64,000 nucleotides of DNA. It comes from a phage. The stretch's first letter is position 1. Each line of letters opens with the position of its first letter. The stretch lies in sequence record PZ445521.1; one strand, written 5' to 3'. The position numbers and the translations under genes were made by a program. Shown one piece after another: positions 12,106-15,716 of the stretch. The notes under the pieces were generated by a model. The model saw nothing but the letters and a program-made list of their open reading frames with translations. It did no database searches and had not been told where the DNA came from.

Positions 12106-12322
12106 ATTGTTTTTCCGTTAAAACAGTAATATCGTAGTAACAGTCAGAAGAAGTTTTAACTGTGGAAATTTTATTATCAAAATACTCACGAGTCATTTTA
12201 TGAGTATAATATTTTTTACCATAAATGATAATAGGCTGTTCTGGTCCTGGAACTTCTAACTCGCTTGGGTTAGGAAGTGTAAAAAGAACAACGCCAGAAG
12301 TATCTTTAAATCGTAAAATCAT
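12059..12322 (-). CDS. hypothetical protein (nrdA.2 position)
   Basis: ORF track. Confidence 0.45.
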
Positions 12323-13179
12323 ATTGCCATTTTCCCTTTAATTGCTGGATGCGATTCATAATTTTCAAGGATAAAATCTTTCGGTTTCATGTATTCAGTT
12401 AACCAGTAAAGCTGTGTTTCGGTGTCACAATTTCCAAACTCTATAGGCCAATCAATTTTAAGTTCACATAGTTCTTTAGGCTCACGACGTAAAATTTCTT
12501 TACATTGCTCAGTATGATTCATATAGATGTGAGTATTACCACCAGAAAATATCAAATCTCCTGGGATAAGATTACACATCTTAGCCACAATATGCGTCAA
12601 GGCAGCGTACGAGGCAATGTTGAATGGCAATCCCAAGAAAACATCTACACTTCTTTGGTACCATTGTAAATCAAGATAACCATTACGCACATTAAACTGA
12701 TAGAACATATGACAGGGCGGTAATGCCATTTGATTGATTTCAGCTGGATTCCATGCTGAAACGATTTGACGTCGATCAGTTGGTAATTTTTTAATACGAT
12801 CAATAGTTTCAACTAATTGATCCACACCACCGAAATCACGCCATTGTTTACCGTATATAGGACCAAGTTCACCACTATGATATCCTAGGTCTTTAGCCTG
12901 GTTTTCATAGTTATCGTCCCAAATAGTTTTGCCTTGAATAAGACTACCATGAGTGCGAAGACGTAAATCATTAACATTGGTAGAACCGGAAATAAACCAT
13001 AAAAGCTCAGCAATGCATGCATTCCAGGCGAGCTTCTTAGTTGTTACTGCAGGAAAACCTTTACTTAAATCCCAGCGTAATTTAGTACCGAACAAAGCAA
13101 TTGTTCCTGTGCCCGTTCGGTCATCGGTTTCATAGCCATTTTCAAAAATGTCTTTAATTAAATCTTGGTATTGTTTCAT
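12319..13179 (-). CDS. td: thymidylate synthase, uninterrupted (no intron)
   Basis: 286-aa continuous ORF; PPCH active-site motif; matches T4 Td exon-joined length. Confidence 0.9.
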
Positions 13180-13224
13180 TTAGTACCTTATATAAATTAT
13201 AATACATTTTATGAAGCTAAATAA

Positions 13225-13572
13225 TCAATACGGTTTAGCATCAAATTTTCTCTCAATTTCAGGCGTGAAATATAATTCTTTACCGCGTTTGGAAAAGCGA
13301 CCAATAATATGATAATTATTCTCATCAAACGTGATATTACCAATATCCATAGCTTTCAACCAAATATCGATATTTCTATCCAACTTTATGTCAAAATTCC
13401 AATACGGAGAACTATTACCGAAAATACTGCAAGCGGATTCAGTAAAACAACTACTATAAATCTTATCTTTAGGAACTACTAATTGATAGACACCTTTAAT
13501 AAACTGAGGACCCTGCCATTTTGGTTGTTTCGTGTCTTTTTCTAATAGAATAGGGTAATAATTAAAATTCAT
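13225..13572 (-). CDS. hypothetical protein inserted between frd and td
   Basis: ORF track, 115 aa; frd and td are adjacent in T4 as I recall. Confidence 0.5.
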   Translation of the reverse strand: MNFNYYPILLEKDTKQPKWQGPQFIKGVYQLVVPKDKIYSSCFTESACSIFGNSSPYWNFDIKLDRNIDIWLKAMDIGNITFDENNYHIIGRFSKRGKELYFTPEIERKFDAKPY

Positions 13573-13591
13573 ATTTCCGCCACGCGTTATT

Positions 13592-14418
<827 letters not shown>

Positions 14419-14429
14419 ATTATCTCCTA

Positions 14430-14762
14430 TTAAAAAGGATCAGGAACATATCCGCTAGCTTTAATCATTTTAATTAACGTTAACATTCCTTTGTTAACTG
14501 CTCGTGAGATTTCATCAAAAACTTCATCACTAAAAAGTTCTAACACGCCCTTCTGAACTTTTAATTTACAGCCAACAATTTCTTCATCGCCTATAGTAAA
14601 TTCATTACCACCAATTCCACCGAAAAACTTAATTACACCAGTTAACTGTCTTCCACGAGAATATGGGTCGTGTGATAAAGTAATATGAGTCACCCCGGGT
14701 ACAGTTTTAAATTGGCAGCGAATATTTACTTGTGAAATTCCAGTTACATGAATGTCAGACAT
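14430..14762 (-). CDS. hypothetical protein (frd-32 cluster)
   Basis: ORF track. Confidence 0.5.
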   Translation of the reverse strand: MSDIHVTGISQVNIRCQFKTVPGVTHITLSHDPYSRGRQLTGVIKFFGGIGGNEFTIGDEEIVGCKLKVQKGVLELFSDEVFDEISRAVNKGMLTLIKMIKASGYVPDPF

Positions 14763-15073: not shown

Positions 15074-15334
15074 TTATTTTTGAATTTTATCGAGCCACTT
15101 ACCAGGCTTAATCATTTCTTTAGTAGCCTTTTCCATACTTCTGAACTTGACCAATAGAGGATAGGTATCGACACCCATAACTAAACTGGTTACAAGACTG
15201 TGTTCACCTACAAGCCATAACGAATACGTTTGAATACCGAGCCCGTAATTTCTGTCTTTATGGACCCGTACACCCATCACTTCAAATTTCTCACTAGCTT
15301 TTTCTACCGCATCCAGGAAATCATCTTTAGTCAT
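15074..15334 (-). CDS. hypothetical protein (frd-32 cluster); start trimmed to internal ATG
   Basis: ORF track 15074..15376; internal Met avoids 40-nt overlap. Confidence 0.45.
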   Translation of the reverse strand: MTKDDFLDAVEKASEKFEVMGVRVHKDRNYGLGIQTYSLWLVGEHSLVTSLVMGVDTYPLLVKFRSMEKATKEMIKPGKWLDKIQK

Positions 15335-15335
15335 A

Positions 15336-15716
15336 TTAGGCCTTAAAAGTTTTTCGCAAAAGTTCAATGATTTCATCTACATTGTTTTCATCTACAATGC
15401 AGTGAATTTTTGTTACGCCAGAAACCTTGTCTTTGACTTCATCTTCTTCAGAAGTCGGTTCTTTATACTCACGAAAACAATGAAATTCATCTTCGCAAAT
15501 TTCTAAAAGTCTATCTTTGAGGTAAAAATGCTTTCCATTTGCGCATTCAATGTGTTTTACTGCTTTATATCCATTAGCGACGGAAACTTCTTTAACTTCA
15601 AACCATCCGCCATTATCTCGAATAGCTTTAACGATTGATGAATTAGAACGTGGGCTATAATTAATAAATGTATCAATAAGTCTTGGAACAAGTTCATACT
15701 TTTTGCCAATATACAT
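15336..15716 (-). CDS. hypothetical protein (frd-32 cluster)
   Basis: ORF track, 126 aa. Confidence 0.5.
   Translation of the reverse strand: MYIGKKYELVPRLIDTFINYSPRSNSSIVKAIRDNGGWFEVKEVSVANGYKAVKHIECANGKHFYLKDRLLEICEDEFHCFREYKEPTSEEDEVKDKVSGVTKIHCIVDENNVDEIIELLRKTFKA

Follow-up and report, generated by a model that had tools for sequence, protein, structure and literature searches.

In phage T4 (NC_000866) the genes frd and td overlap through the sequence ATGA, with nothing in between, and td is split, with I-TevI inside its intron. We have analysed a stretch of 64,000 nucleotides of phage DNA (PZ445521.1), which we will call the window, where an open reading frame of 115 amino acids lies between these two genes. 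It will be called X. A previous reading of the sequence alone implied that X was an unusual insert. The question raised by this locus is therefore what X is, how the junction acquired its present form and what the protein might do.

Gene X and its conservation

X is found in positions 13225–13572 on the minus strand; it starts with ATG and its protein begins with MNFNYYPILLEKDTKQPKWQGPQFIKGVYQL (also given as MNFNYYPILLEKDTKQPKW). It sits downstream of frd and upstream of td. The frd gene (13592–14173, minus strand) codes for a dihydrofolate reductase of 193 amino acids; its true start, MIKLVF, is at 14173 and its stop at 13592. The protein is 98% identical to T4 Frd, and its C-terminus, ...ESVYK, is the same as in T4 and Mosigvirus. 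The td gene (12319–13179, minus strand) codes for a thymidylate synthase of 286 amino acids in an uninterrupted frame, without group I intron and without I-TevI. The sequence-only reading had described these features correctly: the listing of open reading frames gives X with the same coordinates and N-terminus, frd and td do overlap in T4, and td lacks both the intron and its homing endonuclease.

Positions 12300–14250 match Shigella phage JK38 with 100% identity and many other Tequatrovirus genomes with 97–99%. A tblastn search with X matched 555 phage records when the threshold was E≤1e-5 and 621 when it was E≤1. An identity of at least 90% is shared by about 362 phage records, which include T2, RB32, RB51, RB9 and RB18. 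The exact X sequence of the window is present in 104 contigs; the corresponding cluster at 90% identity has 154 member sequences. Within Tequatrovirus two copies of X differ by 6–15 synonymous and 0–2 non-synonymous changes, with dN/dS values of 0.01–0.06 at dS 0.10–0.29. The same measure gives 0.03–0.13 at dS 0.15–0.22 for frd. As judged from these substitutions, X is shown to be under strong purifying selection, as constrained as frd, and to be a working gene. Its synonymous divergence is like that of frd, which means that the residence of X in these genomes is about as old as the divergence of frd, with no recent sweep. The 555–621 matching records and the dN/dS values place it far beyond a chance reading frame: phages keep X as a true gene and conserve it strongly.

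Only one position of the protein is clearly variable, residue 14 (codon 13531–13533), where T, A, V, E and M all occur in copies from Tequatrovirus that are otherwise at least 97% identical. It could belong to a loop free of constraint, or else be a site of diversifying selection.

T2, RB32 (locus tag RB32ORF229c) and JK38 are among the many Tequatrovirus genomes in which an identical X protein is annotated, almost always as "hypothetical protein". The label is different in phages of the BASEL collection, such as MZ501065 and MZ501089, where X appears as "putative homing endonuclease". The BASEL paper annotated its genomes by comparative genomics, and contains nothing specific to back this label of the X gene. 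The T2 record AY310907, from 2003, contains the X frame unannotated. Escherichia phage 132 (2249–2525 in contig L018) has an intact X gene of 116 amino acids, and its record annotates two short frames there, on opposite strands; this entry is an annotation error and not a pseudogene. Our literature searches found no paper which discusses X. It is an already catalogued and widespread hypothetical gene, ordinary and absent from the textbook phage T4. The sequence-only reading would have been set aside by a conserved and named T-even gene at this site, and this is largely the case: the gene is conserved at this position, but its name is only a locus tag.

States of the junction in Tequatrovirus and in other genera

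The variation of the junction among T4-like phages was studied in 60 evenly spaced rows taken from 697 records which match the region; 43 of the rows are Tequatrovirus-like. Three states were found in them. About 30 of the 43 (about 70%) have X. In about 10 (about 23%) we find instead a frame of 68 amino acids, Y, which is unrelated to X. The empty frd/td overlap of the T4 type is present in 3 of the 43 (about 7%); the T4 junction has no orthologue of X, since its two genes overlap directly. The X type is therefore the commonest frd-td junction in Tequatrovirus and T4 is a rare form. The novelty which had been implied for X did not hold, given that some 360 records carry this state.

Y belongs to phrog_9550, has no match in Pfam and overlaps both the stop of frd and the start of td. 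In a separate search it was found in place of X in about 135 Tequatrovirus records. Examples are Escherichia phage D5505 (848–1054 in contig L011) and contig L010 (1025–1231); Y is also found in the metagenomic contig L013 (4670–4879), to which we will return. Homologues with 42% identity are also present in Phapecoctavirus-like myoviruses with genomes of about 150 kb, which indicates that Y moves between phage families.

A connection of X with the absence of the td intron was considered and rejected. X and the intron occur together in Pu-Krd-SF3 and FL44, and X also occurs without intron. The intron is present without X in T4 and F1, and Y is found both with and without intron. The combination of an empty junction with an intron-less td did not appear in the 60-row sample. 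The td intron assorts independently of X. Escherichia phage vB_EcoM_F1 (779–946 in contig L009) has a short td intron in which only a remnant of 55 amino acids is annotated as homing endonuclease; it looks like a decayed I-TevI.

X is a member of phrog_1928 and does not differ from other RB32ORF229c-type proteins, either those of T2, RB32, RB51 and JK38 or the X1 and X2 proteins of CC31, PM2 and Melville. It matches the family profile with E=1e-35, residues 4–111 being aligned to positions 2–125 of 126. The motifs Q.KW, HG.Y, GN and GRFxKxGxE..F are shared by the family. Homologues with 30–46% identity are found directly after frd and before td in at least six other genera of Tevenvirinae: Kanagawavirus (Kosakonia phage 305), Mosugukvirus (Pectobacterium phage PM2), Jiaodavirus (Klebsiella phage JY1), Gelderlandvirus (Salmonella phage Melville), Karamvirus (CC31) and Winklervirus (Erwinia phage Vettismorki). 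Two metagenomic contigs also have the family at this site. All the members of phrog_1928 which we examined have this location. Between genera X is 30–46% identical and Frd 43–53%.

Most of these genera have two adjacent frames, X1 and X2. They are homologous, with a hhalign probability of 99.5% and common motifs, and both match phrog_1928; X of the window is the X1 paralogue. X2 is found only at the frd-td locus and is absent from Tequatrovirus, and a search of the 64-kb window with the X profile gave no second copy or paralogue. In contig L013 the order is frd-X1-X2-Y-td: X1 of this contig shares 63% identity with X of the window, and the Y of the contig 79% with that of Tequatrovirus. Klebsiella phages such as VAC36 and R3_1 have the same neighbours (X1-X2-Y).

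When 1.8 billion cluster representatives were searched exhaustively with HMMER, only 17 clusters were obtained. Sixteen of them are X-like small proteins of 99–116 amino acids; the other one is a protein of 838 amino acids with a marginal E-value of 7e-4, which is probably spurious. Phrog_1928, which has no Pfam model, is shown to be a small family of enterobacterial Tevenvirinae only, with its native location at frd-td, often as a tandem of X1 and X2.

Architecture of the junction and of the neighbouring block

Alignment of the window with the T4 junction defines a unit of 416 bp with a direct repeat of 12 nt at both ends, TAAATGAAA(T/C)AA, detected in a repeat search with spacing 416. The left copy, TAAATGAAATAA on the coding strand, is in positions 13587–13598 (minus strand) and contains the frd stop. 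The right copy, TAAATGAAACAA, is in positions 13171–13182 (minus strand) and contains the real start codon of td. When one repeat and the 404 bases between the copies are removed, the exact T4 junction is obtained. A vestigial start, ATG AAA TAA (13595–13587), overlaps the stop of frd: it resembles the start of td, ATG AAA CAA, and initiates nothing. The structure of the junction differs from T4 in this unit and in the vestigial start, which supports the sequence-only reading on this point; the implied tie to the missing td intron is not supported.

A spacer of 19 nt (13573–13591, minus strand) separates frd from X, as found in the junction alignments. All the other genera examined have no spacer between frd and X1: the Frd frame extends 3–10 codons beyond the conserved ...VY, and its stop abuts or overlaps the start of X1. 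X1 is packed there stop-to-start against frd, and the last frame of the interval likewise against td. The Frd of X-bearing Tequatroviruses ends in ...VYK, exactly like that of T4 and Mosigvirus, which lack X. In T4 and Mosigvirus the final K and stop codons come from the leader of the next gene.

These features suggest that the different states of the junction were interconverted by recombination at short A-rich stop/start overlaps (AAATGA...). The simplest reading would be that Tequatrovirus received its X1 cassette from a related phage, by recombination, at a junction with a gene already starting at the frd stop. Since a vestigial td start remains at this stop, the cassette would have been placed into a formerly fused frd/td junction. 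Alternatively, X may have been lost from T4 and Mosigvirus by deletion between the 12-nt repeats, which is mechanically equally easy. AAATGAAA is a common gene-start context in T4, so that this direction is also plausible and part of the repeat may be due to chance. X is 63–66% identical to the copies of contigs L013 and L014, while Frd is only 49% identical to theirs. The closer similarity of X mildly favours transfer; it could reflect horizontal transfer or differing evolutionary rates. Whichever the direction, the comparison suggests that stop/start overlaps act as microhomology, with whole cassettes swapped or dropped and neighbouring genes left intact.

Between X and td there is another spacer, of 45 nt (13180–13224, minus strand). 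Six phages with X share it at 100% identity, their td genes being only 81–85% identical to that of the window. Promoter-like hexamers lie in this spacer, together with AAGG as ribosome-binding site of td. A MotA-box-like sequence, TTTAGCTTCA, is followed after 12 nt by TAATTT, and the spacer is possibly a middle promoter for td. Such hexamers are no more frequent in it than in shuffled sequence. Two other interpretations of the spacer were discarded. An RNA element is not supported, since Rfam gave no match and the fold lacks significance (z-score −1.6). A remnant of X2 was also rejected: its apparent start, MLN..., is forced by the overlapping C-terminal codons of X1, and the similarity to contigs L013 and L014 stops at the stop codon of X1.

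The DNA of td in the window is only 81–85% identical to td of the X-bearing phages T2, S2_01, UFV06 and FL44. In these comparisons the adjacent X is 94–98% identical and nrdA.2 93–96%. The block is therefore mosaic, which is consistent with frequent recombination around td.

X resembles the small frames found between genes 32 and nrdA in T4, namely frd.1 (DUF5417), frd.2 (FRD2), frd.3, nrdA.1 (DUF4326) and nrdA.2 (DUF5496), in transcription block, size and conservation. It differs from them because they are present in T4, have names and belong to Pfam families, whereas T4 lacks X, which has no name and no Pfam family. The block from 32 to frd of the window has three further small frames on the minus strand which are also absent from T4, located at 14173–14418, 14430–14762 and 15074–15376. 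This set comprises a frame of 81 amino acids (phrog_3183) which overlaps the frd start, a frame for a DUF7247 protein and a frame of 100 amino acids between frd.2 and frd.1. In T4 there is only a gap of 71 nt from frd to frd.1. Given these three frames, T4 appears as a trimmed version of the whole block, beyond the frd-td junction.

Predicted structure and possible role of X

X and 27 of its relatives gave no match in Pfam, NCBIfam, PADLOC or the PDB sequences, either with phmmer or with profiles; the sequence-only reading had rightly noted a protein without recognisable motif. We have obtained two AlphaFold2 models of X, the first with pLDDT 79 and the second, from a deeper alignment, with pLDDT 85.4 and pTM 0.79. 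Both agree in the presence of strands in residues 6–12, 27–34, 48–50 and 62–64, a helix in 68–76 and strands in 80–82, 86–96 and 99–104. The order of these elements is b-b-b-b-a-b-b-b, and the predicted structure of X is a small beta-barrel which has a single helix. Foldseek comparison with viral models found uncharacterised proteins only; the significant matches are T4-like and include longer versions from Aeromonas and Serratia phages. Among the closest known systems we count the nucleic-acid-binding domains with an OB fold, such as the Teb1 OB domain, HIN-200, the N-terminal domain of RecO, S1 and RPA/SSB. An OB fold has five strands closed into a beta-barrel, the third and fourth of which are separated by a helix. 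The proteins of the X family have a slightly basic character and many aromatic residues; Q16, W19, G27, Y29, G91, F93, K95 and G97 are invariant and R92 is nearly so.

The explanation which we favour, with a probability of about 0.6 for the whole of it, is that X is a genuine accessory coding gene of the T-even early nucleotide-metabolism block 32-frd-td-nrdA, at a junction shaped by recombination and with a binding role for its product. X may not be an enzyme but a protein that binds a ligand, built as a small OB-like beta-barrel. The conserved W19, Y29, R92, F93 and K95 might together make up the binding face, with single-stranded nucleic acid or a partner protein as the most plausible ligands. 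The protein might be made together with Frd and Td. It would be dispensable on laboratory hosts, since T4 does without it.

The label found in the BASEL records implies a different explanation, that X is a free-standing homing endonuclease or some other selfish mobile gene which invaded the frd-td junction. X is indeed an indel when compared with T4, homing endonucleases (I-TevI, mobE, segG) abound in this region, and the unit of X is bounded by the 12-nt repeat. Like the free-standing seg and mob genes of T-even phages it is small, present or absent among close relatives and located in a slot of the 32-nrdB region. It differs from them by the lack of a nuclease motif, by a single fixed locus across genera, by a divergence which looks vertical and by strong purifying selection. 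No GIY-YIG, HNH, LAGLIDADG, His-Cys, PD-(D/E)xK or EDxHD motif, nor any other Pfam domain, was found in X or in the 27 relatives, the PDB sequence search had no match, and the predicted fold is unlike any nuclease. The protein's 115 amino acids do not include a separate domain for DNA binding. X has diverged across genera to an extent comparable with frd. Within Tequatrovirus its synonymous changes (dS up to 0.29) are as frequent as those of the flanks and as frequent as, or more frequent than, those of frd, which speaks against a recent sweep. Nothing specific for this gene is offered in the BASEL paper. The label is unsupported, a nuclease is very unlikely and we can hardly give credit to any selfish element at this place.

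The main rival of the accessory binding gene is a counter-defence or host-takeover protein, which would bind and inhibit a host factor or an immune sensor and be kept or lost according to host range. We consider it a possible though rather unlikely explanation. X is small, non-enzymatic and encoded in the early region, and its homologues are confined to phages. Presence and absence within one genus is typical of counter-defence genes too, and this counts against our preferred explanation. The exchange of X with the unrelated cassette Y also favours the rival. Diverged tandem paralogues in other genera, the variable surface residue 14 and the fact that T4 lives without X point in the same direction. 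However, hardly any amino acid changes across the genus, under very strong purifying selection, unlike most arms-race proteins. The position is fixed and descent is apparently vertical in at least seven genera with different hosts. PADLOC gave no match, although its library contains defence and not anti-defence proteins, and the literature searches gave no link.

A partner of the enzymes of thymidylate synthesis has also been weighed: an adaptor of Frd and Td to gp32, to single-stranded DNA or to a dNTP-synthesising complex, or else a regulator of td. X is invariably found between frd and td, among the neighbours 32, frd, td and nrdA, and the stop/start overlaps of other genera imply co-translation. 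The OB-like model with its conserved aromatic and basic residues would also suit such a role. The same pathway is run without X in T4, in Mosigvirus and in the phages of the Y type. Gene order is generally conserved in T4-like phages, so that linkage with frd and td is poor evidence of a functional link. We consider this role improbable. Its bolder form is quite improbable: phrog_1928, including X1 and X2, would be an unrecognised OB-like family, lost by T4, which couples Frd and Td to single-stranded DNA, gp32 or a replication-linked dNTP-synthesising complex, or which regulates td. If it were true, the loss of a coupling component from T4 would explain why decades of T4 genetics have missed X.

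These results are mainly of value as a corrective, since T4 serves poorly as reference for the frd-td junction. Comparisons based on T4 will keep flagging X as an insert or mislabelling it as a homing endonuclease. What remains of interest in X is its function, the lack of a solved structural relative and the tidy signature of recombination at its junction. This junction illustrates how stop/start overlaps can serve as microhomology for the swap or loss of cassettes, while their neighbours are undisturbed. X is a reasonable target for experiments, being tightly conserved, without Pfam model or solved structural relative and always placed between dihydrofolate reductase and thymidylate synthase. 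A natural pair with and without X, T2 and T4, is available in every phage laboratory.
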